Of a DNA stretch of 50,863 nucleotides, positions 24,329-49,806 are shown one piece after another (position 1 is the stretch's first letter; each line of letters starts with the position of its first letter). Below the pieces are notes generated by a model, which was not told the origin of the DNA, did not search any database, and saw only the letters and a program-made list of their open reading frames with translations. A program made the translations under genes and the position numbers. The DNA is taken from positions 1-50,863 of the forward strand of contig CAYSZD010000006.1 in assembly GCA_964435515.1 (NCBI GenBank), in the 5' to 3' direction. Source of the stretch: an uncultured Gammaproteobacteria bacterium (GTDB lineage: Bacteria; Patescibacteriota; Patescibacteriia; Patescibacteriales; UBA12465).

Positions 24329-25546
24329 TTATTTAACAATCAATTTAATAAACTGCCTTTTACCTCTTTGAATAATTAACTCATCATTTACCTCTAACTT
24401 TTCATTAACATCTTGCTGTATCTTTAAATTATCATCATATCCCAGCTTAATTCCTCCCTGAGTAATCAAACGACGAGCCTCATTTTTACTAGCAGACAGA
24501 TTACATAATAATAATAAATCTACTAAAGAATAATTACCTTTTTTTATTTCCATACGAGGAATTTCTTCTGGAATCTCCTTATTTTGAACAGTTTTAATAA
24601 AATATTCTTGAGCTAAATCAGCTTTTTCTTCATTATGATTAATTTTAGTAATTTCCCAAGCTAAACGCATTTTAGCGTCTCTAGGGTTTTTAATGTTATT
24701 AAGTATATCCTTGGCCTCTTGCCAGTCTAAAAAAGTACAAAGTTCAAAAGCGGAATCTAAAACATCATCAGGCCAAGACATTATCTTAGCATACATAGTA
24801 TTATAATCTTCATCAAGCATAACAATATTTCCTTCACTTTTACCCATTTTTTTACCCTCGCTATCTGTTAAAAGTTTCATTGTTATCACACCTTTGTCTT
24901 TATTTTTGACCGCTTTTAGTAAATCCCTTCCGCACAACATATTAAACATCTGATCATTACCGCCCACTTCTATGTCCACATCCAATTCAAGGCTGTCATA
25001 AGCCTGAGCCAAAGGATAGAAGAACTCATGTAAAAAAATTGGTTTCTCTTCTTGCAGACGCTTCTGAAACATATCCCTTTGAATCATGTTTTGAACTGTA
25101 AAATTAGAAGCTAATGCAATCAAGTCTTTAAAGCTAAGCTTGTCTTGCCACTCATGATTAAAACGTATTTCCGCAGCATTATCTCCATCAAACTTAAGGT
25201 AAGCACCAGCTTGTAATTTAAAATTACTAGCATTATCTAGAACTTCTTCACGACTTAATTGTTTTCTAGTAGCTGTTTTATCAGTAGGATCTCCAATCAT
25301 ACCAGTAAAAGTTCCTATTAAGAAAATTACCTTATGGCCAGCTTCCTGAAATTGTCTTAATTTAACCAAAGCAATAGCGTTGCCAATATGTAAAGACTTA
25401 GCACTAGGGTCAAAGCCACAATAAACACGTAAAGGCGTGGCCGAATCTAACTTTTGTTCCAACTCTTTATAGTTAGGATACAGATTAGACACCCCTCGAT
25501 TTAGAATTTCATTCATTTGTTCTTTTTTTATTTTACCCTTAGTCAT
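24329..25546 (-). CDS. tyrS: Tyrosine--tRNA ligase (start set at MTKGKI rather than at 25609)
   Basis: YCGFDPSAKSLHIGN, EFFYPLAQAYD, GGNDQ, KMGKS, C-terminal S4 domain. Confidence 0.97.
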   Translation of the reverse strand: MTKGKIKKEQMNEILNRGVSNLYPNYKELEQKLDSATPLRVYCGFDPSAKSLHIGNAIALVKLRQFQEAGHKVIFLIGTFTGMIGDPTDKTATRKQLSREEVLDNASNFKLQAGAYLKFDGDNAAEIRFNHEWQDKLSFKDLIALASNFTVQNMIQRDMFQKRLQEEKPIFLHEFFYPLAQAYDSLELDVDIEVGGNDQMFNMLCGRDLLKAVKNKDKGVITMKLLTDSEGKKMGKSEGNIVMLDEDYNTMYAKIMSWPDDVLDSAFELCTFLDWQEAKDILNNIKNPRDAKMRLAWEITKINHNEEKADLAQEYFIKTVQNKEIPEEIPRMEIKKGNYSLVDLLLLCNLSASKNEARRLITQGGIKLGYDDNLKIQQDVNEKLEVNDELIIQRGKRQFIKLIVK

Positions 25547-25663
25547 AAATGCTTGGTAATAATTTATTAAATATGTTATAATACTAGCAGACTTAAGTGA
25601 TTTTTTCAATTGAAGAAGTCTCTCTATTATTTAAATAATATTATCTAAAATTAAAATAATTTT

Positions 25664-26635
25664 ATGTTTTCTTATCGTCTATTTCTTAAACAGGCCTGGA
25701 ATATAACCAAAAAATATCGCTATCTTTGGTTTTTTGGAATATTTGCCTCCTTGCTTTCTATCGGTGGAGAATACCAATTAATAACCCAAAGCGCAACGAC
25801 ACAGCCAGGCGGCAGTTTTTTAAGTAATGGTAATATTATCTGGCAAATAATATTAAGCCCTGATTTTTATCAAGGTTTTGTAAGTTTGGCTACAGAAAAT
25901 AGCGCTGCCTTTTTAGCAGTAATTTGTATATTCTTATTATCCGTAGGCCTAGCAATTATAATGCTTTATTTAGCTATCCTTTCCCAGTCTGCCATTGTAA
26001 GCCAGAGTGCTCAAATCTTATTAAACAAAAAGAAAAAAAATAATTTAAATATCAGTGATGGACTAGCTGAGGCAAAGCCACATTTTTGGAGAGTATTAGG
26101 TCTAAATTTATTTAGCTATATCATTGTTGTATTAAGCTTATTTTTAATTAGTTTGCCTTTAGTATTTTTAATTATCACTGACACTCTAGCAATAAGCATC
26201 GCTTATACCTTATTATTCATTATTTTTGCCCCGATTGCCCTCTCAATAGCATTGCTCATAAAATATGCTATCGCAGCTAGAGTGCTAGAAAACACTAGTT
26301 TTGTTTCATCAATACAAAAAGGTATAAAGATATTTAAAAATAATTGGCTAGTGAGCTTAGAAATGGCTTTAATATTGTTTATCATTAATTTTGCTGTTGG
26401 CATTGTAACCCTATTCTTTATTGCTCTATTGTTTATGCCTATGCTATTTATAGCAATACAGTTCTATGCCCCAATTCTCGCAGCTATTAGCCTGGTATTA
26501 TCCATTGGCACTATGTTAGTAATAGCATCTTGGTTAAATACCTTTCAGATTAGCACTTGGACCGGTCTATATCTCCATCTTCAAGATAAAAAGGGTAGAA
26601 GTAAATTAGAAAGATTATTTGCCAAGAAAAAATAA
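25664..26635 (+). CDS. Multi-pass membrane protein of unknown function
   Basis: About 6-7 hydrophobic segments; AW.....YRYLW.FG N-terminal motif. Confidence 0.85.
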   Translation: MFSYRLFLKQAWNITKKYRYLWFFGIFASLLSIGGEYQLITQSATTQPGGSFLSNGNIIWQIILSPDFYQGFVSLATENSAAFLAVICIFLLSVGLAIIMLYLAILSQSAIVSQSAQILLNKKKKNNLNISDGLAEAKPHFWRVLGLNLFSYIIVVLSLFLISLPLVFLIITDTLAISIAYTLLFIIFAPIALSIALLIKYAIAARVLENTSFVSSIQKGIKIFKNNWLVSLEMALILFIINFAVGIVTLFFIALLFMPMLFIAIQFYAPILAAISLVLSIGTMLVIASWLNTFQISTWTGLYLHLQDKKGRSKLERLFAKKK

Positions 26636-26708
26636 ACAACTATATTAGTATCTAAAACGCGACCAGCGCTCTGTTTATAGCGTTTAGGTCGCGCTTTAAT
26701 AAAGAACT

Positions 26709-29700
26709 ATGAGTGATCTCGCTTCAATAGAAAATTTAATTAATCCTCAATCTGCCCAAGACGAAGATAGTGTTCAGGGTAAATTTGCCACCAAGCAAGC
26801 TGAGATTAAATTAAAAGAAATTGAAACACAAACAGAAAAAAGGGCAAACAGCTTAGGCTTGTCTTATGTTAATCTTTTTAGCTTTCCTGTTAGTCCTGAC
26901 GCTATTATATTAATACCCGAAGAAAGGGCTATAGAAATACAAGCTGTATGTTTTTTTTATGATGGCAAGAATGTTAGAATTGCTTGTGTCAAGCCAAGTC
27001 AAGAGATTGCTGATGAAATCCAAAGAATTAATGAAGAATATTATACGGACGCTAAACTGTATCTTGTATCACAAAATAGCCTACAACAAGCTTTAAATGT
27101 ATATAAGACACTACCTAAAATTAAAAAATATCAATCAGGAATAGAAATCAATGAACTCAGTCTAGAGAAATTTAAAAAAGATATTTCAAGTTATAAAAAT
27201 CTAGCTGAAATTATTAATGAAGTAAATGTTAGCGACATTGTAACTCTGATTCTAGCCACAGCGATGAAAGTAGGAGCTAGTGATATTCATATAGAAGCAG
27301 AAGAACATGGAGTAGCGGTTAGATTAAGAATTGATGGCGTTTTACAAGAGGCTGCTTTAATCGATAGAGATAAATGGAAAAAAGTAGTCACTAGAATGAA
27401 AATATTAGCTAGAGTAAAAATTAACGTAAGCAATAAGCCACAAGATGGTCGTTATACTATTTATCTCAAAGATGGCAAAATTGATGTTCGCTCATCATTT
27501 CTGCCTACCGCTTTTGGAGAAAGTGTAGTAATGAGACTTTTGGATTCCAAGGCTGTAGCTCTAGATTTTGAAAAATTAGGCATTAGGCCAGAAATATTAA
27601 AAAAGCTAAAAGAAGAAATTAGTAAGCCAAATGGCCTAATACTAACTACCGGTCCAACTGGTTCAGGTAAAACAACTTCTCTATACGCTATTTTAAAAAA
27701 ATTAAACCAACCTGGCACCAAGATTGTCACCCTTGAAGATCCAATTGAATATCAACTAGAAGGCATTAACCAGAGCCAAGTTGAAACTAGTAAAGGATAC
27801 AGTTTCTCGGATGGTTTAAGATCAATTTTAAGACAAGACCCAAATATTATTATGGTTGGCGAAATTAGAGATTTAGAAACTGCCGAAATATCAGTTCAAG
27901 CTTCTCTAACAGGTCATCTAGTGTTATCAACTCTTCATACAAACGATGCAGCTGGAGTTATTCCTCGTCTAATTGACATCGGAGTAAAGCCATATTTTTT
28001 AGTACCCTCTATTAATGCTGTTATAGGTCAAAGACTAATACGAAAATTATGTCCTAAATGTCGTGTTGAACACATACTTAGTGCCGAAGAAGAAGAGCAG
28101 GTACATAAAATTTTAGCCGTTATTTCTCCTCGAGCTAATATTGACATTCCCTCCACTTTACCAAAAATGTATAAAGCTGGCGCTGGCTGTCCCTATTGTA
28201 ACGACATTGGCTACAAGGGACGTCTTGGAATTTATGAAATATTTACCATGGATGATAAGCTCAAACAACTCACTATAGACAAAGCTCCATCATTTAAAAT
28301 ACTTCAACAAGCTATTGAGAATGGAATGATTACCATGCTTCAAGATGGTGTTTTAAAATGTTTAGACGGCATCTCATCATTAGAAGAAGTATATCGAGTA
28401 ATTGGAAATTTTGACTATGTAAATGACTTATACGATATAGTAATTTCTCAAACTATTGGCAGGGGAATAAAAATAACTCCCGAAATATACACTAAAGCCG
28501 AAACTCTTACTCAAAATATTGGACAAAGTTTAAATTTAACAGATTTACCATCAAAAAAATTAATTCAATTAATTATGGGAATGGCCGTGGCTAGTGACGC
28601 GGGTGATATCCATATTGAGCCCACAGAGACTACTGTTAAAGTGCGTTTTCGTATTGATGGAGTTATGCATAATATTTTAGAGCTACCAAAAACTAGCTAT
28701 CTTCCTATATTATCAGAAATAAAAATTTTAGCCGGTTTCGCTACTAATATAAAAAGAGCTACTTTAGATGGTCGCTTTAGCATCTATTTGCCTAATCATA
28801 AAATAGATTGTCGTCTTTCTATTATTTCTGGTGGATACGGAGAAACTATAGTAGTTCGATTATTGTCTAACTCTGCCGCTGATTTAGATTTAGAAAAATT
28901 AGGAATTACCTCAGTTGCAAATACTCAGCTTCACAAAGCTATGACAAAGACTAAGGGAATCATTATTACCACTGGACCAACTGGATCAGGAAAAACCACT
29001 ACTCTATATGCAATTTTAAATCAATTAAATAAATCTGATATTAAAATAATTACAGTAGAAGATCCAATTGAATATCAGCTGCCAGGAGTAATGCAAACCC
29101 AAATAGACACAGAAAATGGCTACACTTTTGCTGCTGCCATGCGCTCATTATTACGACAAAATCCAAACATCATGATGATCGGAGAAATAAGAGACAGTGA
29201 AACAGCTAAAGTTGCCATTGAAGCTGCTATGACAGGCCATTTAGTTTTATCAACTATTCACGCCAATAGCGCCGCTGGAGCTATTTCTCGTTTTGCTGGA
29301 CTAGGTGTAGAGAAATCTTCTCTAGCTAACGCTTTAGAATTTTCAATAGGACAAAGACTAGCCCGCAGAATTTGTCCTCATTGTAAAGTTATAGACGAAT
29401 CTAATCCTGCCTACATTCAAAGAGCTCAAGAAATATTAGATAGTATTAAAAATCCATCAATAATTATTCCTAAAAAATTAGAATTCTATCGTGGCGCCGG
29501 TTGTGACCAGTGTAAAAAACTTGGATATAAAGGCAGAATTGGTTTTTATGAAACTATTAGCTCTACCCCAAATATTCAAAAAATTATTCAAAACGAAAAC
29601 TCTAATGATTATGACTTAGAACAAGAAGCTATTAAAAATGGCACAGTAACAATGGCTCAGGATGCAGTTCTAAAAGCTTTAGCAGGAGAAACTAGTTTAG

Positions 29701-29723
29701 ATGAAGTATTTAGAGTAATATAA
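26709..29723 (+). CDS. GspE/PulE/PilB-family secretion/pilus ATPase with two tandem ATPase modules
   Basis: Two copies each of ASD/GDIHIE, GPTGSGKTT, EDPIEY, GEIRD, HLVLST.H and tetracysteine Zn motifs. Confidence 0.95.
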   Translation: MSDLASIENLINPQSAQDEDSVQGKFATKQAEIKLKEIETQTEKRANSLGLSYVNLFSFPVSPDAIILIPEERAIEIQAVCFFYDGKNVRIACVKPSQEIADEIQRINEEYYTDAKLYLVSQNSLQQALNVYKTLPKIKKYQSGIEINELSLEKFKKDISSYKNLAEIINEVNVSDIVTLILATAMKVGASDIHIEAEEHGVAVRLRIDGVLQEAALIDRDKWKKVVTRMKILARVKINVSNKPQDGRYTIYLKDGKIDVRSSFLPTAFGESVVMRLLDSKAVALDFEKLGIRPEILKKLKEEISKPNGLILTTGPTGSGKTTSLYAILKKLNQPGTKIVTLEDPIEYQLEGINQSQVETSKGYSFSDGLRSILRQDPNIIMVGEIRDLETAEISVQASLTGHLVLSTLHTNDAAGVIPRLIDIGVKPYFLVPSINAVIGQRLIRKLCPKCRVEHILSAEEEEQVHKILAVISPRANIDIPSTLPKMYKAGAGCPYCNDIGYKGRLGIYEIFTMDDKLKQLTIDKAPSFKILQQAIENGMITMLQDGVLKCLDGISSLEEVYRVIGNFDYVNDLYDIVISQTIGRGIKITPEIYTKAETLTQNIGQSLNLTDLPSKKLIQLIMGMAVASDAGDIHIEPTETTVKVRFRIDGVMHNILELPKTSYLPILSEIKILAGFATNIKRATLDGRFSIYLPNHKIDCRLSIISGGYGETIVVRLLSNSAADLDLEKLGITSVANTQLHKAMTKTKGIIITTGPTGSGKTTTLYAILNQLNKSDIKIITVEDPIEYQLPGVMQTQIDTENGYTFAAAMRSLLRQNPNIMMIGEIRDSETAKVAIEAAMTGHLVLSTIHANSAAGAISRFAGLGVEKSSLANALEFSIGQRLARRICPHCKVIDESNPAYIQRAQEILDSIKNPSIIIPKKLEFYRGAGCDQCKKLGYKGRIGFYETISSTPNIQKIIQNENSNDYDLEQEAIKNGTVTMAQDAVLKALAGETSLDEVFRVI

Positions 29724-29740
29724 TAATAATTAATAACAAT

Positions 29741-30316
29741 ATGATTGACAAAGTATTCATAAAAAAATTAAGAGAAGAATATCAATTAAAAGGCAAAACT
29801 AGACGTCAGATTATTAGTCGCTCCAATGATGTATTATTTCAAGCTAAAAAAACAATTTTTGCCCTGCACAGAGAAGACATGAAACTATCAGCAGAAAATT
29901 TCAAATTAATGGAACTATCTTTAAAAAAAATGGAAAAAGATTTTGGCTATCTTCGATTAAAAGAAGAAGGTCCCTATCAAGCTGCAATAGAAGAGTATGT
30001 TGAAGCAAAAACTTTAGATGCTATTATAAGAGAACAAAAGATAAGCACTATTAAAGGATTAAAAATTGGCTATGACAGTTATATTGGTGGGCTCTGTGAT
30101 TTAATTGGCGAAATGGTAAGACTAGCCACTAATCGCTCTGCCAAAGGAGATTATAAAAGTGCTTCTATCTTAAAAAATAAAGCCGAAATGATTATGATGG
30201 AACTATTAGATTTTGACTTAACTGGTTATTTAAGGACTAAATACGACCAAGCTAGAGGACATTTAAGAAAATTGGAACAAATAAGCTATGACATTAAACT
30301 ACATAAAGAAAAATAA
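29741..30316 (+). CDS. Translin/TRAX-family protein
   Basis: All-helical; EEYVEA, YIGGLCDLIGEMVR and LRTKYD match translin-family conserved blocks. Confidence 0.85.
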   Translation: MIDKVFIKKLREEYQLKGKTRRQIISRSNDVLFQAKKTIFALHREDMKLSAENFKLMELSLKKMEKDFGYLRLKEEGPYQAAIEEYVEAKTLDAIIREQKISTIKGLKIGYDSYIGGLCDLIGEMVRLATNRSAKGDYKSASILKNKAEMIMMELLDFDLTGYLRTKYDQARGHLRKLEQISYDIKLHKEK

Positions 30317-30318
30317 TT

Positions 30319-30810
30319 ATGCTTATCGCGATTGCCTCAGACTTGCATGATAATATTGCTAATTGGCACAAATTTAATGAATATTTAAAAAAACAGGCTA
30401 TTAAAATCCTGTTTTTCTGTGGCGATATGTGTAACCAAGACACTTTATCAATTATAAATGAAAGTTTCGTTGGTGATATGTATTTTATTGCCGGCAATGG
30501 AGAATTATATCTTCCAGAAACATTGAATAAATGCGCTAATTTACACTTCCTAGGACGCTATGGCGATATTACTATAGATGGACTCCATTTTGGATTAATA
30601 CACGAAATAGATTATCGCCAAGATTTAGAAAAAAAAGCGCAATCACTAAATTATATCTTTTATGGCCATAGTCATAAACCATGGATAGAAATAGAAAAAA
30701 GATTAATTATCGCTAACCCTGGTACTTTAGGAGGTATTTTCTATCCAGCTAGTTTTGCAATTTTTGACACCATTAATAAAAAAATCGAACTTAAATTATT
30801 ACATCAATAA
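30319..30810 (+). CDS. YfcE/MJ0936-type metallophosphoesterase
   Basis: ASDLHDN, CGD, GNGE, H, YGHSH.P, NPG motifs. Confidence 0.92.
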   Translation: MLIAIASDLHDNIANWHKFNEYLKKQAIKILFFCGDMCNQDTLSIINESFVGDMYFIAGNGELYLPETLNKCANLHFLGRYGDITIDGLHFGLIHEIDYRQDLEKKAQSLNYIFYGHSHKPWIEIEKRLIIANPGTLGGIFYPASFAIFDTINKKIELKLLHQ

Positions 30811-30820
30811 ACTATAAATT

Positions 30821-33292
30821 TTAAAAATATTCTTTAAGATATTTACCCGTGATACTGTTTTTATTTTTTGCCACTGTCACAGGAGTACCAGACGCAACAA
30901 CTCTACCTCCCTTTTCTCCTCCTTCTGGACCCATATCTATCACCCAATCAACCGCTTTAATGACATCTAAATTATGTTCAATAATTAAAACCGTATTTCC
31001 TTGATCAACTAACATATTTAAAACTTTAAGTAATTTATCAATATCGGCAAAATGAAGACCAGTTGTTGGCTCGTCTAAAATATATAAAGTTCGTCCAGTG
31101 GCTCTGCGTGATAATTCGGTTGCCAGTTTTATTCTTTGTGCTTCTCCACCTGAAAAAGTAGTGGCTGATTGACCCAAGGTAATATATCCCAAACCAACCT
31201 CTTCTAAAGTAGCAAGTTTTTGACAGACAGCTGAATGTCCTTGAAAAAAGAGCAAAGCTTCACTAACTGTAAGTTGTAATACTTCGTATATATTTTTATC
31301 TTTATATTTTATATCAAGAATTTTTTGCTGAAAACGAAAACCATGACATGCTTCACAAGTTAAATAAACATCATTTAAAAATTGCATTTCAACCTTAATA
31401 GCACCATCCCCTGCACAACGCTCACAACGTCCACCTGGAACATTAAAAGAAAAATGACCAGGACTTAAGCGTTTTAATTTTGCTTCTGGTAATTCAGCAA
31501 AAATATCACGAATATAGGTATAAAGACCAGTATAAGTGGCTGGATTGGAACGAGGAGTTCGTCCAATTGGCGACTGATTAATGTCTATAACTTTATCAAT
31601 ATTATCTATACCTCTTATCTCTTTATGTTGTCCTACTTCTGCCTTTGCACGGTAGAATTTTTTATTTAAAGCATTCGCTAAAATATCAGACATTAAAGTA
31701 GATTTTCCAGAACCAGAAACACCAGTTATAGCTATTAATTTACCCAAAGGAATATCAACATCAATGTTTTTTAAATTATGATGTTTCGCTCCTATTATTG
31801 ATAAATGTAATTTATTACCTGCCCTAAAATTACTTTTAGTAGGAATTGATAATTTACCAGATAAATACGCTCCCGTAAGAGAAGCTTTAGACTTAACAAT
31901 GTCTTCTGGTAATCCAGAAAAAATAATCTCTCCTCCATGTTCTCCTGCACCAGGACCAACGTCAATTAAATGATCAGCTGCCCTCATCATAGCTGCATCA
32001 TGTTCTACTACAATGACAGTGTTTCCATTATCTCTCAAGTCTTTTAACATTGCTATTAACTTATCATTATCTCTTTGATGCAATCCTACTGATGGTTCAT
32101 CTAAAATATAGAGTACTCCACTTAAAGTAGAGCCAACCTGAGCCGCTAAACGAATACGCTGAGCTTCTCCACCTGACAAACTGGAAGCTGGACGATTAAG
32201 TGTAAGATACGAAAGACCAACTCTTTCTAAAAATTCTAAATTTTTTATCACTTCTTTCAAAATCGGCATAACAATAATTTGATCAGAATCTTTAGAGCGC
32301 ACGTTTAACCATTCCAATAACAATATACGCAAATTATCAATGGTCATTTCCGTAAGATCATAAATGCTTTTTCCTTTAATGCGGATAGCTAAAAATTCAG
32401 GCTTTAAACGAGTCCCCATGCAAACTGGACAAACAGCTAAACGCATACACTTCTCTATTTCTTGTTTAACAAAATTAGATTTTGTTTCTTCATATCTTGC
32501 CATTAAATCAGAGTTTAAACCTTGCCAAAGACGATCGCCATTTAAAATAGCCGCCCTTTGCGCAACGGTAAATTCAGACAAAGGCTTATCTAAACTAAAA
32601 CCAAAACGCAAAGCCAAAGCTTCTAAATTTATAAAAAAACTGCTTTTAGCATTTAAATTAGCATGTGCTAATGGCTTTATTGCTCCTTGTAATAAACTTA
32701 ACTTCAGATTAAACACTAATTCCGGATCAATTTCTGTGCGATAACCTAAGCCATTGCAATGAGAACAGGCTCCATAATTAGAATTAAAAGAAAAATTTCT
32801 TGGCTCTATTTGTGCTAATACAAAACTACAACTAGTACAAGCAAAAGAATATGGAGATTCTTGTTCTTGTTTGTTTTTAGTTCTTTGTTTCTTATTAATT
32901 TTTTTTAAACGAGTTTTACAATGTGGACAATATGGCCAAGCAACACGAGCATATAAAAGCCTAAGATAATCATATATCTCAGTAACAGTTCCAACCGTAG
33001 ACCTTGGATTATTGCCAACTGTGCGTTGATCAATAGCAATAGCAGGAGATAAGCCTTCAATTAAATCAAAATCAGGTTTATCCATTAAACCTACAAATTG
33101 ACGAGCATAGGCAGATAAAGATTCTACATATCGTCTTTGTCCCTCTGCATAAATAGTATCAAAAGCTAAAGAAGATTTACCTGAACCAGACAAACCCGTA
33201 ATTACTACTAGTTTATTACGTGGTAGATCCAGATTAATGTTCTTTAAATTATGAGTTCTAGCCCCTCTAATCCTAATATTATTTTCTGACAT
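30821..33292 (-). CDS. uvrA: UvrA-family ABC ATPase lacking the UvrB-binding domain (class II / UvrA2-like)
   Basis: [46 protein letters not shown]; 823 aa; only ~26 aa between CPHC and CTSC. Confidence 0.9.
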
Positions 33293-36283: not shown

Positions 36284-36366
36284 AAATTATAAACTACTAT
36301 TTTATTCTATCCTCTTTTGGCTTTTCAGGCAACAAAAAATAGGCTTTATGCCTATTTTTCAATTCG

Positions 36367-36438
36367 TAGTCCCTAGGGGAATCGAACCCCTGTTACCAGG
36401 ATGAAAACCTGGTGTCCTAACCACTAGACGAAGAGACC
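36367..36438 (-). tRNA. tRNA-Glu(TTC)
   Basis: Reverse complement reads GGTCTCT..CCAGG-TTTTCAT-CCTGG..AGGGG-TTCGATT-CCCCT-AGGGACT-A. Confidence 0.96.
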
Positions 36439-36550
36439 GTACACAAAAAAATATGAAATTAATAATAGCTAATTTCATCAACATTGTATAAACATTTTTT
36501 TTCTTTGTCAAATATTGCCTTTATTCTAAAAACCTTTACAATACTTATAT

Positions 36551-37588
36551 ATGTATATATTAGGATTAGAAAGTAGTTGTGATGAAAGCGCTGCCGCTGT
36601 TTTAGAAGCTAAAGGCACTAAAACTAAAATTCTTAGCAATGTCATTGCATCTCAAATAGATATTCACGCTCAATATGGAGGCGTTGTTCCAGAAGTCGCT
36701 GCTCGCGAACATGTTTTGCATATATTGCCTACAATAGATGAAGCTCTGAGAAAGGCTAAAATAGGTCCTAAGGATTTAAAAGCCATTGCGGTTACTCAAG
36801 GACCAGGACTTGTTAGTTCTCTATTAGCTGCCACTGAAAATGCCAAGGCGCTATCACTTATTTGGAAAAAAGAAATTATTCCCGTTCATCATATTGTTGG
36901 TCATATCTATGCTTCTTTTATTGATACCAATCCGAACCCAGCCTTTCCTCTAATAGCCTTGGTAATCTCTGGCGGTCATAGTAATCTTATCTACATGTCC
37001 GATCATTATAATTTTAAAGTAATTGGCGAAACCAGGGACGATGCTGCCGGAGAGGCCTATGACAAAGCAGCTAAAATGATGGGCCTATCATATCCTGGTG
37101 GACCTATTATCGCTAAATATGCAGAAGAGTTTAGACGAAGCGCTAAAGAATGTAAAATCGAATTACCTAGACCAATGTTAAATTCGAATAATTTAGATTT
37201 TTCTTTCTCTGGACTAAAGACCGCCCTCCTATACAAACTACAAAAAGATAAACAATGGAAAAATAGGGTTCCGGAATATTGCTTTGCCCTAGAATCTGCC
37301 ATTATTGACACTTTAGTACATAAAAGCCTAAAAGCTATAGCTAAATATCAACCTAAAAGCTTTATTTTAGCGGGAGGAGTATCAGCTAATATTGCTCTTA
37401 GAAACACTTTATCAACTAAAATAAAAGAAAAATCACCAAAAACTAATATTTTCTTAGCAAATCTAGCTTATACCACTGACAATGCCGCCATGATTGCAGC
37501 GGCAGGCTATTTTAAATATTATAAGCAAAAAAATAAGGCTTTTGTAGATTATTCCACATTAAATGTAAAATGCGATTTAAAATTTTAA
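36551..37588 (+). CDS. tsaD: tRNA N6-threonylcarbamoyladenosine transferase TsaD
   Basis: ILGLESSCDESAAA, GGVVPEVAAREH, HHIVGH, ISGGHS, DDAAGEAYDK, FSFSGLKT, TDNAAMIA. Confidence 0.98.
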   Translation: MYILGLESSCDESAAAVLEAKGTKTKILSNVIASQIDIHAQYGGVVPEVAAREHVLHILPTIDEALRKAKIGPKDLKAIAVTQGPGLVSSLLAATENAKALSLIWKKEIIPVHHIVGHIYASFIDTNPNPAFPLIALVISGGHSNLIYMSDHYNFKVIGETRDDAAGEAYDKAAKMMGLSYPGGPIIAKYAEEFRRSAKECKIELPRPMLNSNNLDFSFSGLKTALLYKLQKDKQWKNRVPEYCFALESAIIDTLVHKSLKAIAKYQPKSFILAGGVSANIALRNTLSTKIKEKSPKTNIFLANLAYTTDNAAMIAAAGYFKYYKQKNKAFVDYSTLNVKCDLKF

Positions 37589-37633
37589 AATTTGCTTTTT
37601 TTAGCAATATCTTATAAAATATCTATTAATAAA

Positions 37634-37707
37634 GGCTCGGTGGTGAAGTGGTCTAACACTGCAGTTTGCAAAACTGTCATTCGTGGGTTCGAATCCCACT
37701 CGAGCCT
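37634..37707 (+). tRNA. tRNA-Cys(GCA)
   Basis: Acceptor stem GGCTCGG/TCGAGCC, discriminator U, anticodon arm GCAGT-TTGCAAA-ACTGT. Confidence 0.96.
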
Positions 37708-37748
37708 CAAACTCCTTTAAGTTTTACTTAAAGGTTTTTTAATAAAGT

Positions 37749-37900
37749 TGTGGATAACTTGTGATTTCTGTGTAAAACAAATAAACTTTAGTCTACAAAT
37801 ATCTAGACTTAAGTCTAAAAACTCTTTAATTTTTTGCCTAAAATTAAATAAAATAATTAATATTACCACAAAATAAGCATTAGGGCTTGCGTTGTCCACA
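37749..37900. promoter_or_regulatory. Cluster of DnaA-box-like 9-mers
   Basis: TGTGGATAA (37749), TGTGTAAAA (37769) and TTGTCCACA (37892, 1 mismatch to TTWTNCACA). Confidence 0.45.
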
Positions 37901-37915
37901 AATATGTGCTATAAT
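37887..37915 (+). promoter_or_regulatory. Strong sigma70-type promoter for the 37921-38258 transcript
   Basis: TTGCGT-17 nt-TATAAT with TG extended -10. Confidence 0.8.
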
Positions 37916-37920
37916 ACTTA

Positions 37921-38258
37921 TAGTTAGATAAAGTTCTTTTTACTAAATCTTGAAAATATCATCAGCGCTAGCATGATGAGAGAAGGACTAATAGTCCATG
38001 GAGTAGGATAAACAGAGCTAATCAAAATTATTAAATAATATATTTAATAAAATTAGCAATAGAAATCATAAAGAAAATCTTACAAAGAATTGGTGAAAAG
38101 AAAACAGCTTAAGCTAGCAAGCTCCAAATATAATCCTGGCCGAAAAAATTGATAAAAATCAATGAAACAGTATGCTAGGATTGGAGCTCAGACGCGGCCT
38201 ATTATTTATAATTACTTTATACTATATAAAGAGGGGCCCGTTCTGGGCTCCTTTTTTA
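37921..38258 (+). ncRNA. Candidate large structured ncRNA of unknown class (RNase-P-like motifs, non-canonical)
   Basis: Own promoter and terminator, no credible ORF, several complementary helices with A-rich linkers. Confidence 0.6.
38231..38258 (+). terminator. Intrinsic terminator of the candidate ncRNA
   Basis: GGGGCCC-GTTCT-GGGCTCC followed by TTTTTT. Confidence 0.85.
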
Positions 38259-38345
38259 TTAGTAAAAACAAGACTAAACTTGAATTATTATTGCTTTATT
38301 TCTCTATTACTGCTAAAAATTAATTATTATAAATACAACATATAT

Positions 38346-39410
38346 ATGTCTTTATCCATAGCAATTGTAGGACTACCTAATGTAGGCAAATCTAGCCTAT
38401 TTAATATCCTCACTAAAAAAAGCGTTGAAGCTGCTAATTATCCTTTTTGTACCATTGATCCAAATGTCGGGATAGTAAAAGTGCCAGATGAGCGACTATA
38501 CAAACTCGCCGAAGTGTCTAAACCAGCTAAAATTATAGCCACTAGTATTGAATTTGTAGACATAGCGGGATTAGTGGCCGGTGCGAGCAAGGGTGAAGGA
38601 CTTGGTAATCAATTTTTAGCTCATATTAGAGAATGTGACGCTATTTGTGAGGTTATCCGTGATTTTAAAGATGAAAACATTATTCATGTTAATGGACAAA
38701 TTGATCCAGAATCTGACAAAGAAACAATAAACATCGAATTAATATTAGCTGATTTAGCCAGTGTTAGTAAAAGATTAGAAAAAACAAAAAAAGAAAGCCG
38801 AAGCGGAAACAAAGAATTAGTTTTTCAAGCATCAATATTAGAAAAAATAAATCAACATTTGGAGGCTGGCTTAGCTTTAAGGTCTCTGTCTTTTACTGAA
38901 GAAGAATTACCATACGTTAATAGTTTAAATTTACTAACTATAAAGCCCATTATCTATCTCTTAAATACTGATAACTTAGATACAATACCAAATCTAAATA
39001 ATTTAGACGGAGAAATAATTGCAGTTAATGTAAAAATAGAAGCAGAAATTAATTCTCTTCCAGAAGAAGAGCAGGCAGAATATATAAAAGAATTAGGCTT
39101 AGAACAAAGTGGTTTAGATAAATTAATTGCTGCCTCCTATAAATTATTAGGTCTGGACACTTTCTTTACTACTGGCACCGACGAAACAAGAGCTTGGACT
39201 GTTAAACATGGAGCTAAAGCACCTGAAGCAGCTGGAGTAATTCATACTGATTTTATTAAAGGTTTTATTAGGGCCGAGGTTATTAGCTGTGAACAACTAA
39301 TTGCTATTGGCAATGAAACAAAGGCTCGCGAACAAGGTTTAATCAGAACTGAAGGAAAAGAATATATTATAAAAGATGGAGATGTCTGTCATTTCTTAGT
39401 AAATCGCTAA
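38346..39410 (+). CDS. ychF: Ribosome-binding ATPase YchF (start set at MSLSIAIVG rather than at 38172)
   Basis: GLPNVGKS, ANYPFCTIDPN, DIAGLV.GASKGEGLGNQFL, FFTTG.DETRAW, APEAAGVIHTDF, C-terminal TGS domain. Confidence 0.97.
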   Translation: MSLSIAIVGLPNVGKSSLFNILTKKSVEAANYPFCTIDPNVGIVKVPDERLYKLAEVSKPAKIIATSIEFVDIAGLVAGASKGEGLGNQFLAHIRECDAICEVIRDFKDENIIHVNGQIDPESDKETINIELILADLASVSKRLEKTKKESRSGNKELVFQASILEKINQHLEAGLALRSLSFTEEELPYVNSLNLLTIKPIIYLLNTDNLDTIPNLNNLDGEIIAVNVKIEAEINSLPEEEQAEYIKELGLEQSGLDKLIAASYKLLGLDTFFTTGTDETRAWTVKHGAKAPEAAGVIHTDFIKGFIRAEVISCEQLIAIGNETKAREQGLIRTEGKEYIIKDGDVCHFLVNR

Positions 39411-39455
39411 ATTAAATTTAAATAAGCAAAAAGCACTTTTAAGTGCTTTTTTATA

Positions 39456-40001
39456 TTAACGAGATAAAGGAATTCTTGATGAATGAGAAGGGCTGGATGA
39501 AACAGGCGATGATTTTGTATTCTTTCTATCACTAGTTACTTGACTGATAGATGTAGAAGTTTCTCTGTTACCAACTGATACCCTTGATTTAGGAGAAGAT
39601 ACATCACTTAAACCTGAGCCTCTATTAAATTGTTGACTGGCAAAACCTGGAGTAACTATTTCACCATCGTCTGCCCTAATAATACGTACATGAGATTTTT
39701 CTTTCTTTATTTCTCCGCCACTAGCCAATTTATCTACAATTTTTTGCACCGTTTTAAGCTCAGTTGATTTTAAATCGCCACTAGCTTTAATCCTGTGGAG
39801 CATGGTATTTTGCTGAGATTTACTAAAAGTACCACGACGAATAGAATCTTGCGAGACCTTTACGGCCTTCATAATTGCTTCCTGATTTGCAGATAATTTA
39901 GCAATATCTCCACCTTGCTTACTCAAATATTTAAACTTACTGTTAAAAGCATTAGCGCTAAATTTTTTGCCTCCTCCTGGCAGGCTATTAATTCCGCTCA
40001 T
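39456..40001 (-). CDS. Hypothetical basic protein with Ser-rich disordered tail
   Basis: 181-aa ORF 9 nt downstream of the methyltransferase; bidirectional terminator at 39428-39452. Confidence 0.75.
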   Translation of the reverse strand: MSGINSLPGGGKKFSANAFNSKFKYLSKQGGDIAKLSANQEAIMKAVKVSQDSIRRGTFSKSQQNTMLHRIKASGDLKSTELKTVQKIVDKLASGGEIKKEKSHVRIIRADDGEIVTPGFASQQFNRGSGLSDVSSPKSRVSVGNRETSTSISQVTSDRKNTKSSPVSSSPSHSSRIPLSR

Positions 40002-40010
40002 AAAATATAG

Positions 40011-41189
40011 TTATTTTTCTAAAATTATTAATTCGCGCCATACTTTTTGACCCGCTCTATTATATAATAAAGTATTACGTAAACTTTTTTTAAGCCAAGG
40101 TAAGTCCTTAAATTTTGATGGCAATGGATCTATGAATTTCCACTTATCTAGATTTACTTGTAAAAATTCTCTACCAAAAAATACTGGCCAAACCATCACT
40201 ACTCTGCCACCGTCTTTCATAATTTGATAAAAAGCCTCTAAGGATTTAGTATATAAAACTTCTAATTCAGTAATTACTGATGAAATTGAATTTAAATCTC
40301 GTTGTGGGCCTAAATAAGGCTCAGTAACTATGGTTCCAACCGTATTTGGCTTAATAAATTGAGACAGACGAGTAGCGTTTTTAATATGAAATTTAGCTTT
40401 TATCTCTAAAGAATATAAAGTTCTTAACCATTCAGCATTCACTCGACTATCATTAATAGCTTTTTCCGATAAATCGGTGCCCATCAAATTAGTATAGCCC
40501 ATCAACATTGCTTCATTAATAACTGTACCAGAGCCGCAAAAAGGATCAAGAATTAAATCTTCCTGTGTATTAGGAGAGGCTATATTTAACATCATCTGGG
40601 CTAATTTAGGCGGAAGCATGCCTGAATGATCATCTCTAACTGGACGACCATAATCACGACGAGAGAGGTCTTTATAATCTTGAATCGCTAATGTAAGAGC
40701 AATATAAAGATTATTATCGTCTACATAAAAAATAAGCTCAGCTCCTTTGCTTAATAATTTATTCTGCCCCACAACCACACTAGATAATTCTTTTTCTCTA
40801 CTTGTAACTAATCTTGATGAAATATTAGCCGCTTTTAACTCTTTTTTAATCTGTAAACCTATTTTCTCCGCTTGAAAACGACCACCCACTCCTTGATCAG
40901 ACAGACCAAATACTAATTTTCCTTCACCTCTTTTAGCTTTAGCTATTAAAAGTTTTGAACAAATTTTAGCTATTTCAGTAAAAGGTGCATTAACTATCAT
41001 TTTTTCTTCTAATACAGCTATTTTAAGAGTACCTCCTAATCTTTTAATTAATTTATCTGCATTTATTTCACTATTTTGCTTCATTAAAATTCTCTCATTT
41101 TGCCAAAATAAGTTATTTTCACCTAAAACTGAGCTAATTTCTGCCACTGACCAGGCAGGATGTGTACCTAAAATAAAAATATAATCCAT
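40011..41189 (-). CDS. THUMP-like + SAM-dependent RNA amino-methyltransferase (Trm11/TrmG10-like)
   Basis: GMLPPKLAQMMLN, LDPFCGSGT (motif I), GTDLS, IVTEPYLGP (motif IV-like); N-terminal extension. Confidence 0.8.
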   Translation of the reverse strand: MDYIFILGTHPAWSVAEISSVLGENNLFWQNERILMKQNSEINADKLIKRLGGTLKIAVLEEKMIVNAPFTEIAKICSKLLIAKAKRGEGKLVFGLSDQGVGGRFQAEKIGLQIKKELKAANISSRLVTSREKELSSVVVGQNKLLSKGAELIFYVDDNNLYIALTLAIQDYKDLSRRDYGRPVRDDHSGMLPPKLAQMMLNIASPNTQEDLILDPFCGSGTVINEAMLMGYTNLMGTDLSEKAINDSRVNAEWLRTLYSLEIKAKFHIKNATRLSQFIKPNTVGTIVTEPYLGPQRDLNSISSVITELEVLYTKSLEAFYQIMKDGGRVVMVWPVFFGREFLQVNLDKWKFIDPLPSKFKDLPWLKKSLRNTLLYNRAGQKVWRELIILEK

Positions 41190-41261
41190 ATGCTATTACT
41201 ATGCCCTAAGTCTTGCTTTTTTTCAAGCATTATGATAACTTAAATACATAAATTAATATTT

Positions 41262-41380
41262 ATCATATCTTTCCCACGTTTTGAGCTAGTCTCAAAATAA
41301 TTCCGCTATTTATCAGACGGAATTAAAGGTATTCTTAGAAAACCCTGATTCTCTAGAATACTTGGGTTTTTATTTAATAA
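41262..41380 (+). promoter_or_regulatory. Structured 5' leader of the rpsF-ssb-rpsR operon
   Basis: Hairpins TTTTGAG/CTCAAAA, AATTCCG/CGGAATT and AAACCC/GGGTTT(T), the last with alternative pairing GTATTCT/AGAATAC. Confidence 0.4.
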
Positions 41381-41440
41381 TGAGTGTTAGAAAAATGTTA
41401 AATAATAATAACATCCTTTTTAAGCTCAATATGTTACACT

Positions 41441-41956
41441 ATGTCAAAGACAAAAAAAAGTGGCCCAGGTCGCTATGAAATGCTTTTTATCATCGCTAAC
41501 AACTACACAGAAGATGAAGCTAAACAAATTATCAGTAAAACCGAAGCTTTATTAGAAGAAAATAATGCTACTATCGTGTACCGAGAATATTGGGGTAAGA
41601 AAAAACTTGCTTATCCTATTGGACAAAATCACTATGGCTACTATAGCTTATGTGAATTCGAAACCGAAAGACAGCATGTATTAGAATTAAATCGTCTTCT
41701 TAGCCTTTCTAAAGAAATTTTACGTCATCAAATTGTAAGTGTTCCTGCATTGAGCAATGAAGAGAGAGAAAAGATGAAACAAAAACAAATAGAAGCTTCT
41801 GCAAAAGATGGCAAAGAAGAAAAAGGAGCTAAAGAAAAAATTGAAAAAGTAAGTGATAAAATTGAAAAAATTGAGAAAAAGGATGAGAAAAAAACTAACC
41901 TTAAAGATTTAGATGAAAAATTAGAAGGCATTATTAGTGCCAAAGATCTTATATAA
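41441..41956 (+). CDS. rpsF: 30S ribosomal protein S6 with long charged C-terminal extension
   Basis: RYEMLFII, WGKKKLAYPI, GYY, EILRH; precedes ssb-rpsR. Confidence 0.96.
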   Translation: MSKTKKSGPGRYEMLFIIANNYTEDEAKQIISKTEALLEENNATIVYREYWGKKKLAYPIGQNHYGYYSLCEFETERQHVLELNRLLSLSKEILRHQIVSVPALSNEEREKMKQKQIEASAKDGKEEKGAKEKIEKVSDKIEKIEKKDEKKTNLKDLDEKLEGIISAKDLI

Positions 41957-42009
41957 ATTAATCTGCTTAATTTTATAAGCGCGTTTATAAAGTTAAGTTC
42001 TACAAAAAT

Positions 42010-42468
42010 ATGAACTTAAACAAAGCTATGGTCATCGGTAATCTAACTCGTGACCCAGAAATGCGATCAACCCCATCAGGTCAAAACGTTGCATCTTTCA
42101 GCGTTGCGACTAGCCTAACCTGGACAGATAATTCTGGCCAACAACAAAAGAAAACTGAATTTCATAATATTATTGCTTGGAGAAAATTAGCTGATATCTG
42201 TGGCCAATATCTCCACAAAGGATCTAAAGTATATATTGAAGGTAGATTACAAACTAGTGATTGGACCGGTCAAGATGGAGTAAAAAAATATCGTACTGAA
42301 ATTATTGTAGAAAATATGATTATGCTTGATAAAGCTGGCGATAATAATAATTCAAATAGTAATTTTAATCCTAAGCAAAACAATGCTCCTCGTCAGCAAG
42401 AAGAAGAATTACCTACTATCAACGCTGATGAAGAAGAAGAAATAAGTGTGGAAAATATTCCTTTCTAA
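42010..42468 (+). CDS. ssb: Single-stranded DNA-binding protein
   Basis: NKAMVIGNLTRDPEMR, GSKVYIEGRLQT, acidic tail ending ENIPF. Confidence 0.98.
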   Translation: MNLNKAMVIGNLTRDPEMRSTPSGQNVASFSVATSLTWTDNSGQQQKKTEFHNIIAWRKLADICGQYLHKGSKVYIEGRLQTSDWTGQDGVKKYRTEIIVENMIMLDKAGDNNNSNSNFNPKQNNAPRQQEEELPTINADEEEEISVENIPF

Positions 42469-42492
42469 AAATTAAAACTATAATAAGCTTAT

Positions 42493-42702
42493 ATGAACAC
42501 TAAACACAAAGACTGTTATTTCTGCGTCAATCAAGTTGAAGTAGATTACAAAGATGTAAGAACCTTACGTCGTTTCATTAATTTCTATATGAAAATTTTG
42601 CCTGGAGATCGTACTGGTATCTGCGCTTGGCATCAAAGAAAATTAACCCAAGCTATTAAAAGAGCTCGCGTAATGGCTCTATTATCTCCAACTCATAAAT
42701 AA
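42493..42702 (+). CDS. rpsR: 30S ribosomal protein S18 (C+ zinc-ribbon type)
   Basis: CYFC..VDYKD..L..F..KILP..RTGIC..HQR.L..AIKRAR..ALL. Confidence 0.97.
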
Positions 42703-42707
42703 ATTTT

Positions 42708-43268
42708 ATGTTGAATTTTAATGAAATAAAAACCGGTCGCATTATTCTTTTAAATGCAGAGCCTTATGTAATTGTAAAAGCTGACCATCATCAAATGGGC
42801 AGAGGTGGCGCTGTATTAAAAGTTAAATGTCGCAATTTAATTAGTGCTAATGTTTTAGAACGCACTTTTCAGGGAGCAGAAAAAGCTGAAGAGGCTGCAA
42901 CAGAAAGAAAAAAAGCTAACTTTATGTATAAAGATAAAGATGAAGCTTTTTTTATGGACAACGAATCCTACGAACAATTTGGTCTCGCTCTAGAGGAACT
43001 AGGAGATAAAGTGCAGTTTTTAAAAGAAGGGACTGATGTAAATGTATTATATTTTAATGCTAAACCAGTAAGTTTAGATTTACCAATAAAAATGGAATTT
43101 AAAGTAACTTCAGCTCCTCCTGGTATAAAAGGCAATTCAGCTGGTAATGTCAATAAACAAATTGAAATTGAAACTGGCGCCGTTATTAATGCTCCGATGT
43201 TTATTGAAGAAGGAGACTTAATAAGAATAAATACTGAAACTGGTGAATATGTAGAAAGAGTTAACTAA
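42708..43268 (+). CDS. efp: Translation elongation factor P
   Basis: HHQMGRGGA loop, GNSAG..K..ETGA.I..PMFI.EG..I.I.T.TG.YVER. Confidence 0.97.
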   Translation: MLNFNEIKTGRIILLNAEPYVIVKADHHQMGRGGAVLKVKCRNLISANVLERTFQGAEKAEEAATERKKANFMYKDKDEAFFMDNESYEQFGLALEELGDKVQFLKEGTDVNVLYFNAKPVSLDLPIKMEFKVTSAPPGIKGNSAGNVNKQIEIETGAVINAPMFIEEGDLIRINTETGEYVERVN

Positions 43269-43350
43269 AACAGTGAAAGGGTCGCCACTAAGGCGATTTT
43301 TTCTTATCACATTAAATCGACAAGTCCTTATTTCGTGTTATAATTATTAA

Positions 43351-44721
43351 ATGTCTAGTCTAATTATCATTGCTTTAATAGTTTTTACTGCCATTTCTAT
43401 TTTAAAATTAGATTGGGCTCTTTTTATTATTCTCGCCAGCTTACCAGCCTATCTTATTCGTTTTAATCTAGGACCAATTCCCTTTACCTTTTTAGAGGCG
43501 ATGATTATTATTATCTTTATCGCTTGGATAATAAAAAGTAAGCCTTGGCTGAGATTAAGAAAAAGCGCTTGGCAAGACAGAACAAAAAAATATCCATATT
43601 ATTTAGAAATAACAGGCATTCTTATCATTGCTTGGATAGCTTTAGCCATAGCGGGCTTTAATAATAGTTCTTTGGGAATTTTTAAAGCCTATTTTTTAGA
43701 GCCTATCATGCTCTATATAGTTATTATCAATTGTGGTAAGGGTGCAGAAAAAAAGTTTCTTTGGCCACTAACTATCTCCGCTTTATTATTAAGTCTCTTT
43801 GCCATCTTTCAGCAACTAACTGGATCTTTTATAGTCAATCCTTTTTGGGCCGCCCTAGAAACAAGAAGAGTAACATCCGTCTTTCCCTATCCTAATGCTC
43901 TAGGATTATTTTTAGCTCCTATTTTCTTTCTCAGCATATCTCTTTTCTACTTCTACCCCAAACGTAGCAATTTAATTACAGCTGCTAAAAAAATATTTAT
44001 TATCATCAGTCTTCTAAGTTCTATTTTAGCTATCTTTTTTGCTCGCTCAGAAGGTGCTCTCATTGGCATAATTGGCGCCCTGTTTATTGTGGCTATTTTA
44101 GCCAATAAAAAAAGTCGTCGCCTTGCTATTAGTTTAGCTGCACTGGGAATAATATTTCTCATAGCTTATGCACCGGCTTGGAAATATGTGCAACAAAAAG
44201 CTAGCCTTATGGATTTAAGCGGTCAAATTAGAAGACAACAATGGTCAGAGACAATAAGTATGTTAAAGGAAGGGAGAATTATAAGTGGTGCTGGACTAAG
44301 TAAATATCAAGAAAAAGTTTTACCCTTTCATCAAGAAGGAATATTTGTAAAAAATGATGACCCTGAATTTCAACGACACGTAGTCTGGAACGAAGAATAT
44401 CGTAAAAAAGTTTGGCAACCAGTAGAAATATATTTATATCCCCATAATATTTTTTTAAACTTCTGGACAGAACTTGGTTTATTTGGAGCCCTATTATTTA
44501 CCTGGCTAATAGCTCGTTATTTACTTGAAGCTCTTAAACTACTAAAAAATACTCAAGGCCGACATAAATATCTTATCCTTGGACTTATTGGCGCAATGAG
44601 CACTATCATTATTCATGGTTTAGTAGACGTTCCTTATTTTAAAAATGATTTAGCTATTCTTTTTTGGCTGCTAATTGCTCTTTTGGGAATTGTTAAGTTA
44701 AAACAAAAAACAAAAATATGA
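43351..44721 (+). CDS. O-antigen ligase / Wzy_C-family polytopic membrane protein
   Basis: R.TS.F.YPNALG, ARSEGA, R..QW, YPHNIFL..W.ELG, HGLVD. Confidence 0.88.
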   Translation: MSSLIIIALIVFTAISILKLDWALFIILASLPAYLIRFNLGPIPFTFLEAMIIIIFIAWIIKSKPWLRLRKSAWQDRTKKYPYYLEITGILIIAWIALAIAGFNNSSLGIFKAYFLEPIMLYIVIINCGKGAEKKFLWPLTISALLLSLFAIFQQLTGSFIVNPFWAALETRRVTSVFPYPNALGLFLAPIFFLSISLFYFYPKRSNLITAAKKIFIIISLLSSILAIFFARSEGALIGIIGALFIVAILANKKSRRLAISLAALGIIFLIAYAPAWKYVQQKASLMDLSGQIRRQQWSETISMLKEGRIISGAGLSKYQEKVLPFHQEGIFVKNDDPEFQRHVVWNEEYRKKVWQPVEIYLYPHNIFLNFWTELGLFGALLFTWLIARYLLEALKLLKNTQGRHKYLILGLIGAMSTIIIHGLVDVPYFKNDLAILFWLLIALLGIVKLKQKTKI

Positions 44722-45428: not shown

Positions 45429-45433
45429 GGAGA

Positions 45434-45520
45434 GGAGAGGTGACTGAGTGGTTGAAAGTACCGCTCTCGAAAAGCGGCAAGGGTGAAAGCCCTTCGGGAG
45501 TTCGAATCTCCCCCTCTCCG
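45434..45520 (+). tRNA. tRNA-Ser(CGA)
   Basis: Acceptor stem GGAGAGG/CCTCTCC, G73, anticodon arm CCGCT-CTCGAAA-AGCGG, long variable arm AAGGG-TGAAA-GCCCTT. Confidence 0.96.
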
Positions 45521-45525
45521 CAGAT

Positions 45526-45554
45526 TGACAAAAGTATATTAAAATGATATATTT
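45526..45554 (+). promoter_or_regulatory. Promoter upstream of ORF 45667
   Basis: TTGACA-17 nt-TATATT with TG extended -10. Confidence 0.65.
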
Positions 45555-49786: not shown

Positions 49787-49806
49787 ATTACAAATCTTAA
49801 ACAAAC

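Follow-up and report, generated by a model that had tools for sequence, protein, structure and literature searches.

What would a translin-family nuclease gene, set directly before a metallophosphoesterase (MPE) gene, do in a bacterium? The question is raised by two adjoining genes in a 50.9-kb window of contig CAYSZD010000006.1 (~32% G+C), the window being the whole stretch of DNA that was analyzed; 42 open reading frames (ORFs) of at least 100 aa were considered, of which 41 were scanned. An earlier note on this DNA had read the pair as an RNA cut-and-heal module. We find that the 191-aa product of the first gene is firmly a member of the translin/TRAX family and that the 163-aa product of the second belongs to the MJ0936/YfcE class (COG0622) of minimal binuclear metallophosphodiesterases. 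As a whole explanation, we hold it on balance probable that the first gene encodes a homomeric archaeal-type C3PO nuclease serving as a housekeeping scavenger, and that the diesterase is its clade-specific neighbor.

The 191-aa C3PO-type protein (29741–30316, + strand) matched the Pfam Translin profile PF01997 (E = 9.4e-16) over positions 2–204 of its 205, scoring 58.8 bits where the gathering score is 25.9. Its best sequence matches among PDB entries were NEQ131, the C3PO of N. equitans (NeC3PO; E = 6.8e-11), and AfTRAX (E = 1.7e-5), followed by eukaryotic translin and TRAX. The AlphaFold2 (AF2) model (38 homologues; predicted local distance difference test, pLDDT, 94.2) consisted of seven helices. 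When the model was compared with the PDB using Foldseek, the top 49 matches were all translin, TRAX or C3PO, the best fold match being NeC3PO with a template modeling (TM) score of 0.81–0.86 at 25% identity, and the TRAX chains of human C3PO ranked above translin chains; the translin-like structure expected in the earlier note was thus recovered. The best NCBIfam matches were NF011156–NF011161 (the PRK14562 group), with E values down to 3e-19 and scores far under the cut-offs. A haloacid dehalogenase (HAD) fold, suggested by the NCBIfam name 'haloacid dehalogenase superfamily protein', was considered and set aside as a naming artefact; as these models align over the whole translin-fold protein, the PRK14562 name seems to have been given to archaeal translin homologues in error.

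Residues were mapped by a phmmer alignment to NEQ131 using the NeC3PO numbering of PMC5100593. E85, E88, D120, and E124 of the window protein corresponded to the catalytic cation-binding residues E82, E85, D117, and E121 of NeC3PO; S28, K36, and R127 to the substrate-binding S26, K34, and R124; and R165 and D169 to the inter-subunit salt-bridge residues R163 and D167. The acidic TRAX active site that the earlier note had recognized in EEYVEA (residues 84–89) and GLCDLIGE (residues 117–124) is indeed present, and the residues named there are right, the fourth catalytic residue, E124, having gone unmentioned. The catalytic tetrad (E-x-x-E ... D-x-x-x-E) was invariant in 38 of 38 close homologues and, after clustering at 50% identity, was kept in 133–134 of the 134 full-length cluster representatives. 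The mapped catalytic, substrate, and interface residues were retained in 131–134 of these representatives, with the exception of S28 (Ser in 99, Ala in 22), and E124, R127, R165, and D169, which correspond to the residues that form salt bridges between NeC3PO subunits, were near-invariant. A nearly invariant clade-specific C-terminal motif, GYLRTKYDQARGHLRKLEQ, was also present in the window translin. Because the catalytic four are conserved in nearly all representatives, the protein is classed as TRAX-like, that is, predicted to be catalytic, and not as translin-like. The near-invariant interface residues are compatible with, and not proof of, a hollow octameric or hexameric assembly.

NeC3PO degrades both single-stranded RNA (ssRNA) and single-stranded DNA (ssDNA) by an RNase-H-like two-cation mechanism, in which water attacks the phosphorus and the 3' oxygen leaves (PMC5100593); the products therefore carry 3'-OH and 5'-phosphate termini and offer no ends to heal. 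For the window protein we infer oligomeric state, activity, and substrate from the example of the N. equitans and A. fulgidus proteins. The 191-aa subunits would most likely form a hollow oligomer whose active sites point inward, single-stranded nucleic acid would be cut by two-metal-ion hydrolysis through E85, E88, D120, and E124, and cleavage would leave 5'-phosphate and 3'-OH ends. The most likely role of such an enzyme would be a housekeeping one, the scavenging of single-stranded fragments of RNA or DNA.

Among characterized systems, NeC3PO (NEQ131/NeTrax; PDB 5JR9, 5JRC, and 5JRE) is the nearest by sequence and fold, has a similar length, and is likewise of the single-gene homomeric type. 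The window protein differs from it in coming from a bacterium of the candidate phyla radiation (CPR) rather than an archaeon and in having EEY where NeC3PO has QEY. AfTRAX (PDB 3ZC0 and 3ZC1) and eukaryotic TRAX (3PJA and 3AXJ) show the same fold (TM 0.78–0.86) and the same catalytic tetrad. Eukaryotic C3PO, which acts in RNA interference (RNAi) and tRNA processing, combines inactive translin with active TRAX in a heteromer, whereas the window shows one translin-family gene; a second translin-family ORF, and with it the two-paralogue arrangement of eukaryotic C3PO, was not found in the 50.9 kb. We know of no RNAi in the window's organism. Eleven proteins of 345–523 aa with two translin domains were observed elsewhere in the family (P0180, P0193, P0197, P0199, P0216, P0229, P0234, P0253, P0257, P0258, and P0269). 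Their N-terminal domain was devoid of E-x-x-E and D-x-x-G-E and retained the LRRKYD interface motif, and their C-terminal domain retained the catalytic motifs, so that these proteins look like a covalent fusion of an inactive translin with an active TRAX, as far as motifs can tell. The contigs of two such loci (L169 and L170) were merely 1.3–2.9 kb long.

A word-indexed search with the window protein returned 1137 homologues, the named sources of which were mostly labeled Patescibacteria, and an exhaustive search gave 804 clusters at 50% identity (E ≤ 1e-3). The clade-specific motifs were present in 267 species-representative genomes, many of them labeled Candidatus Falkowbacteria. With a profile of more divergent bacterial-type members, 1824 further proteins were obtained, with labels including Uhrbacteria and Pacebacteria. 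Two sequence types could be told apart: the type 'EEY...LTG.LR.K.DQAK' occurred in bacterial contexts, and the type 'QEY...FNGELRKK.DS.KY' was NEQ131-like, the sole context examined for it being archaeal with ribosomal protein S8e nearby. In the literature that was searched, prokaryotic translins are reported in five archaeal phyla and Chloroflexi only (PMC5100593), those of Chloroflexi by Gupta, Kale and Kumar (2012), as cited in PMC5100593 and PMC5424206. As far as they are described in these citing papers, the Chloroflexi translins resemble that of the window in being a single superfamily gene in a bacterium and in standing close to archaeal proteins; the phylum differs. A literature search combining translin with Patescibacteria or candidate phyla radiation found no paper; some Patescibacteria members are already labeled 'translin family' by JGI and NCBI. 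Judged by these sequences, a known nuclease family gains a new bacterial branch that is well conserved.

Studies of translin and TRAX nucleases have dealt with RNAi activation and tRNA processing in eukaryotes and with structure in two archaea; from bacteria, members have only been listed, for Chloroflexi. In Patescibacteria the family is highly conserved, catalytically intact as predicted from its residues, and widespread: at 90% identity it falls into more than 1,800 clusters, and the species that carry it number in the hundreds. It offers experimenters a defined target, small and easy to express, for the question of how an RNAi-free cell uses a C3PO-type nuclease.

The 163-aa neighbor (30319–30810, + strand) matched Pfam Metallophos_2 with 79.1 bits against a threshold of 27 (E = 4.7e-22). 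The TIGR00040 yfcE model scored 44 bits, below its cut-off of 56.25, and some orthologues are labeled 'YfcE family phosphodiesterase' by NCBI. MJ0936 of M. jannaschii was the sole close sequence relative among solved structures (E = 1.3e-7) and also the closest fold to the AF2 model (pLDDT 93.4; Foldseek TM 0.86), followed by Vps29, YfcE, and a COG0622 protein, in agreement with the YfcE/MJ0936-type assignment made previously. The ligand motifs of the binuclear MPE superfamily (D-x-H, G-D, G-N, H, and G-H-x-H) were all present, and the metal ligands D8, H10, D36, N60, H95, H117, and H119 were invariant in 29 homologues.

Cyclic-phosphodiesterase and monoesterase activity in this superfamily needs two residues, a phosphate-binding His in the G-N-H motif and an Arg in the G-D-x-x-D-R motif (PMC2190708, PMC7826289). 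The window protein has Gly61 and Gln40 in their place; across the 29 homologues, the His position was A, Q, G, C, L, or S and the Arg position was never Arg. MJ0936 and E. coli YfcE have the same seven metal ligands and are likewise without the His and Arg, the His position being Asn in MJ0936 and Cys in YfcE. Both are reported to be diesterases only, inactive on 2',3'- and 3',5'-cyclic nucleotides and on monoesters because the phosphate-binding His and Arg are absent, and enzymes of the class hydrolyzed bis-p-nitrophenyl phosphate (bis-pNPP) and the p-nitrophenyl (pNP) ester of thymidine-5'-monophosphate (PMC2190708). A YfcE C74H mutant hydrolyzes 2',3'-cAMP (PMC7826289), the wild-type enzyme being inactive on cyclic nucleotides (PMC2190708). 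The statement in the earlier note that some members of this class act on 2',3'-cyclic phosphates is contradicted by these data, and the 163-aa protein is predicted to be a minimal phosphodiesterase of the MJ0936/YfcE type with diesterase activity only.

Other binuclear enzymes of the superfamily, CthPnkp and lambda phosphatase, do heal RNA ends (PMC2190708). The phosphatase domain of CthPnkp (Clostridium thermocellum) and lambda phosphatase share the binuclear metal center with the 163-aa protein; they differ in having the active-site His and Arg together with kinase and ligase partners, which the window protein and its locus are without. No healing-type MPE was found among the top 50 fold matches of the 163-aa model, and no kinase or ligase domain that would point to Pnkp/Hen1 or RtcA/RtcB-type repair partners was found in the 41 scanned window ORFs; such domains were also absent among the called genes of the related locus L081. 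If the two enzymes cooperate, the phosphodiesterase would finish the short products of the nuclease towards nucleotides ('cut and finish'), which is more plausible than end repair.

Both genes belong to a same-strand (+) run of four, separated by intergenic gaps of 73, 17, and 2 nt. The run opens with a 323-aa polytopic membrane protein (25664–26635), a constant PilB partner of unassigned family with zero matches in Pfam, NCBIfam or PADLOC. It is followed by a 1004-aa tandem double PilB/GspE-type type IV pilus/type II secretion ATPase (26709–29723), which matched Pfam T2SSE in two stretches (E = 3e-231) and exceeded the cut-offs of TIGR02533 and TIGR02538. This protein consists of two complete PilB/GspE units fused together, each half with a GPTGSGKTT Walker A motif and tetracysteine motifs. 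The translin gene starts 17 nt after the end of PilB; its TAA stop (30314–30316) is followed by 'tt' and by the phosphoesterase ATG at 30319, which gives the 2-nt gap. A convergent UvrA gene outside the operon (30821–33292, − strand) bounds the unit downstream, 10 nt past the phosphoesterase stop. From this spacing, translin and phosphoesterase look co-transcribed with PilB. The earlier note had located both genes and their spacing correctly, and the single apparent operon that it placed after the pilus ATPase agrees with the 17- and 2-nt gaps and with the short distances found across the clade. No PilC, pilin, or PilM gene was found among the scanned window ORFs, nor did a ComEC gene adjoin PilB there. 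A role of the operon as a defense system was considered and rejected, as the membrane protein, translin, and phosphoesterase matched no PADLOC defense model and PilB gave only weak generic P-loop matches.

Gene order within the Falkowbacteria-like clade of the window was surveyed in 80 species-level loci, in which the translin was 50–74% identical to that of the window, plus one lineage at 40%. The block made up of membrane protein, PilB, translin, phosphoesterase, in some loci an inositol-monophosphatase (IMPase)-family gene, and then, in reverse orientation, UvrA, PLD, and patatin was conserved as a whole, and the order persisted down to 40% translin identity (L081 among the inspected loci). 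The phosphoesterase lay immediately downstream of translin in 71 of the 80 loci, with a median gap of 3 nt in the 74 loci measured and an overlap in 13–15 of them; it was gone from the translin neighborhood in L080. PilB adjoined translin upstream in 76 of the 79 assessable loci and lay within 1.4 kb in all, and the membrane protein stood immediately upstream of PilB in 75 of 78 related loci. The PilB fusion was retained in most related loci, a single 585-aa unit being found in L068, L073, and L074. The IMPase-family gene followed the phosphoesterase in 17–22 loci (L017 and L081 included) and is absent from the window. UvrA of the window was 60–82% identical to the UvrA at the same position in related loci, the Pfam entries of which include UvrA_DNA-bind.

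A second survey covered 79 loci with a recognizable translin (within L085–L165), drawn nearly all from other CPR clades. The adjacency of translin and phosphoesterase held within the one CPR clade and did not extend beyond it, as no orthologue of the 163-aa enzyme was found within ~5 kb of translin in any of these 79 loci. The commonest downstream neighbor was a UvrD/PcrA-type helicase, placed at +1 in 20 loci and at +2 in six; the translins linked to it fell into two subclades sharing as little as 33% identity and having different upstream genes (L094–L126, L149, L156, and others). UvrD beside translin was often trailed by genes for riboflavin kinase and for an exonuclease that combines an RNase-H fold with a WYL domain. 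XseA/XseB (ExoVII) adjoined translin in two separate clades, following it in one and preceding it in the other. In L085 (6688–8141), the next genes after XseA/XseB encoded a PD-(D/E)XK/Cas4-like nuclease and an exonuclease of the RNase-H fold; in L152, the ExoVII genes c55 and c56 lay upstream of translin. The order DnaB–RecR–translin occurred in eight loci, six of them with a dCMP deaminase at +1 or +2, a position that this gene held in seven loci overall.

The loci from L085 onward (88 loci, nearly all divergent CPR with one archaeal locus pair) were rescanned with a relaxed hidden Markov model and a generic motif for MPEs. The 1,210 six-frame fragments contained three MPE ORFs only (L090, L139, and L142), all just downstream of translin. 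In L139 and L142, a 279-aa membrane-anchored PF00149 MPE stood at +1 and was followed by a small membrane protein and RNase J. In L090, a 301-aa PF00149 MPE stood at +2, after a NUDIX gene and before a phosphoribosyltransferase, and further along came two small ORFs and an AA_kinase-family gene, possibly of the UMP-kinase type. A Pfam scan of 108 non-redundant neighbor clusters showed that Metallophos and NUDIX alone recurred in more than one distinct cluster. These non-orthologous MPEs lend faint support to a possible degradative or salvage cooperation of the 'cut and finish' kind; three lineages are a small number, and the membrane-anchored MPE may act outside the cytoplasm.

Several observations weigh against the reading of a scavenging nuclease with a diesterase neighbor. 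No RNA-seq run containing the locus was found, spacing being the evidence for co-transcription, and the locus was carried by DNA metagenomes only (wastewater, landfill, and bioreactor). A scan of positions 25400–31200 for consensus promoters and terminators gave the same counts as shuffled sequence and says nothing on the operon. The phosphoesterase pairing (71/80) is less conserved than that of PilB with translin (76/79), and in rearranged loci the phosphoesterase keeps with the IMPase gene and translin keeps with PilB. The pairing also sits in a block that includes genes without a plausible link. Across CPR translins, ~14 context types were distinguished, most of them without a phosphoesterase, and the neighbors include both DNA-repair genes (UvrD, XseAB, and RecR) and RNA-related genes (RNase J, QueA, and an RlmH-type methyltransferase). 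Such variability is as expected for a stand-alone housekeeping gene. The contexts in Patescibacteria vary, yet are not random, with UvrD, ExoVII, RecR, phosphoesterases, and PilB among them.

Nucleic-acid salvage, which the earlier note had offered as its alternative, survives best among the other readings; its support is faint and circumstantial, and we regard it as possible but rather unlikely. The translin cage would chop nucleic acid, and diesterases, NUDIX enzymes, and phosphatases would yield nucleotides for a non-synthesizing organism, the source being either DNA imported with a PilB-driven pilus or the cell's own turnover fragments. The clade-wide adjacency of PilB and translin, the IMPase-family phosphatase after the phosphoesterase, the dCMP deaminase near translin, the translin–NUDIX–MPE–phosphoribosyltransferase arrangement of L090 with its AA_kinase-family gene, and the non-orthologous MPEs after translin in two more lineages all point in this direction, as does the degradation of ssDNA as well as ssRNA by NeC3PO (PMC5100593). 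The PilB evidence, however, all comes from one clade with block-wide synteny, and because of this the adjacency counts as a single evolutionary observation; PilC, pilin, and ComEC were not found beside PilB among the scanned ORFs, and most translin contexts have no salvage gene.

A role as a DNA repair or recombination accessory, in which the translin cage would degrade the single strands made by a UvrD-type helicase or work with ExoVII, was likened to helicase–nuclease pairs such as Lhr-Core/MPE and appears unlikely to us. In P. putida, an Lhr-Core and MPE cluster, an operon precedent for a helicase with an ssDNA endonuclease, combines an MPE and a helicase acting on single-stranded DNA (PMC7826289) and resembles the pairing of translin with UvrD in other clades. 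The window genes have no adjoining Lhr or UvrD gene, and the P. putida enzyme belongs to a different, 216-aa MPE clade. The UvrD/PcrA-type helicases across two translin subclades, the differing XseA/XseB arrangements, the DnaB–RecR–translin loci, the recurring RNase-H-fold exonuclease nearby, and the convergent UvrA of the window's clade argue for this role. Against it, window UvrA is on the opposite strand. Small CPR genomes commonly carry repair genes, and the ~5 of 14 context types in which one occurs do not clearly exceed the chance level. The prediction also failed on five further loci with two independent contexts (BacA–YceG–translin–methyltransferase and cation ATPase–translin–MFS), where the two nearest genes on either side of translin included no repair gene; in L168 and L171, an Fpg-type glycosylase was encoded five or six genes upstream. 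DNA-repair neighbors as a general rule were accordingly rejected.

Very unlikely, in our view, is a non-catalytic translin-like binder of nucleic acid, or a gene neighborhood without functional meaning. Eukaryotic translin does bind RNA and ssDNA without catalytic residues, and CPR gene contexts are highly variable; the full tetrad in at least 133 of 134 representatives argues for catalysis, and TRAX chains came before translin chains in the fold search. Hardly credible at all is the RNA cut-and-heal reading of the earlier note, in which translin cuts RNA and the phosphoesterase strips 2',3'-cyclic or 3'-phosphates for re-use or ligation: despite the tight coupling of the two genes in the window's clade and the existence of RNA-healing MPEs, this attractive idea is unsupported by the product chemistry (3'-OH/5'-phosphate), by a phosphoesterase active site of the MJ0936/YfcE kind, or by comparative gene order (orthologous pairing in 0/79 loci of other clades), and is corrected here as chemically unsound.

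A scavenging translin nuclease could also be placed in a wider scheme. The cage might be the entry point of nucleic-acid recycling in CPR bacteria that depend on scavenged nucleotides, individual lineages having recruited varied partners: non-orthologous phosphodiesterases, NUDIX and nucleotide-salvage enzymes, the pilus ATPase, or a helicase and exonuclease. We consider this scheme improbable as it stands; if true, the recycling route would be the first defined cellular role of a bacterial translin.

The window also encodes a 387-aa DHH-family protein (15680–16843) with a weak match to NrnA oligoribonuclease/pAp phosphatase (NCBIfam E = 1e-9, well under the cut-off). Going by this match, the genome also has a candidate nanoRNase, of relevance to any model of oligonucleotide degradation. 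The flanking regions 1–25609 and 36366–50818 are unusually dense in translation genes. Seven ORFs of the window encode aminoacyl-tRNA synthetases (two of TrpRS/TyrRS type, PheRS alpha and beta, a ValRS-type class I enzyme, ArgRS, and a class II enzyme of G/H/P/S/T type), and peptidyl-tRNA hydrolase, EF-P, TsaD, and the Der (EngA) and YchF GTPases are present as well, together with nine tRNA genes, tRNA-Ile(UAU) among them.

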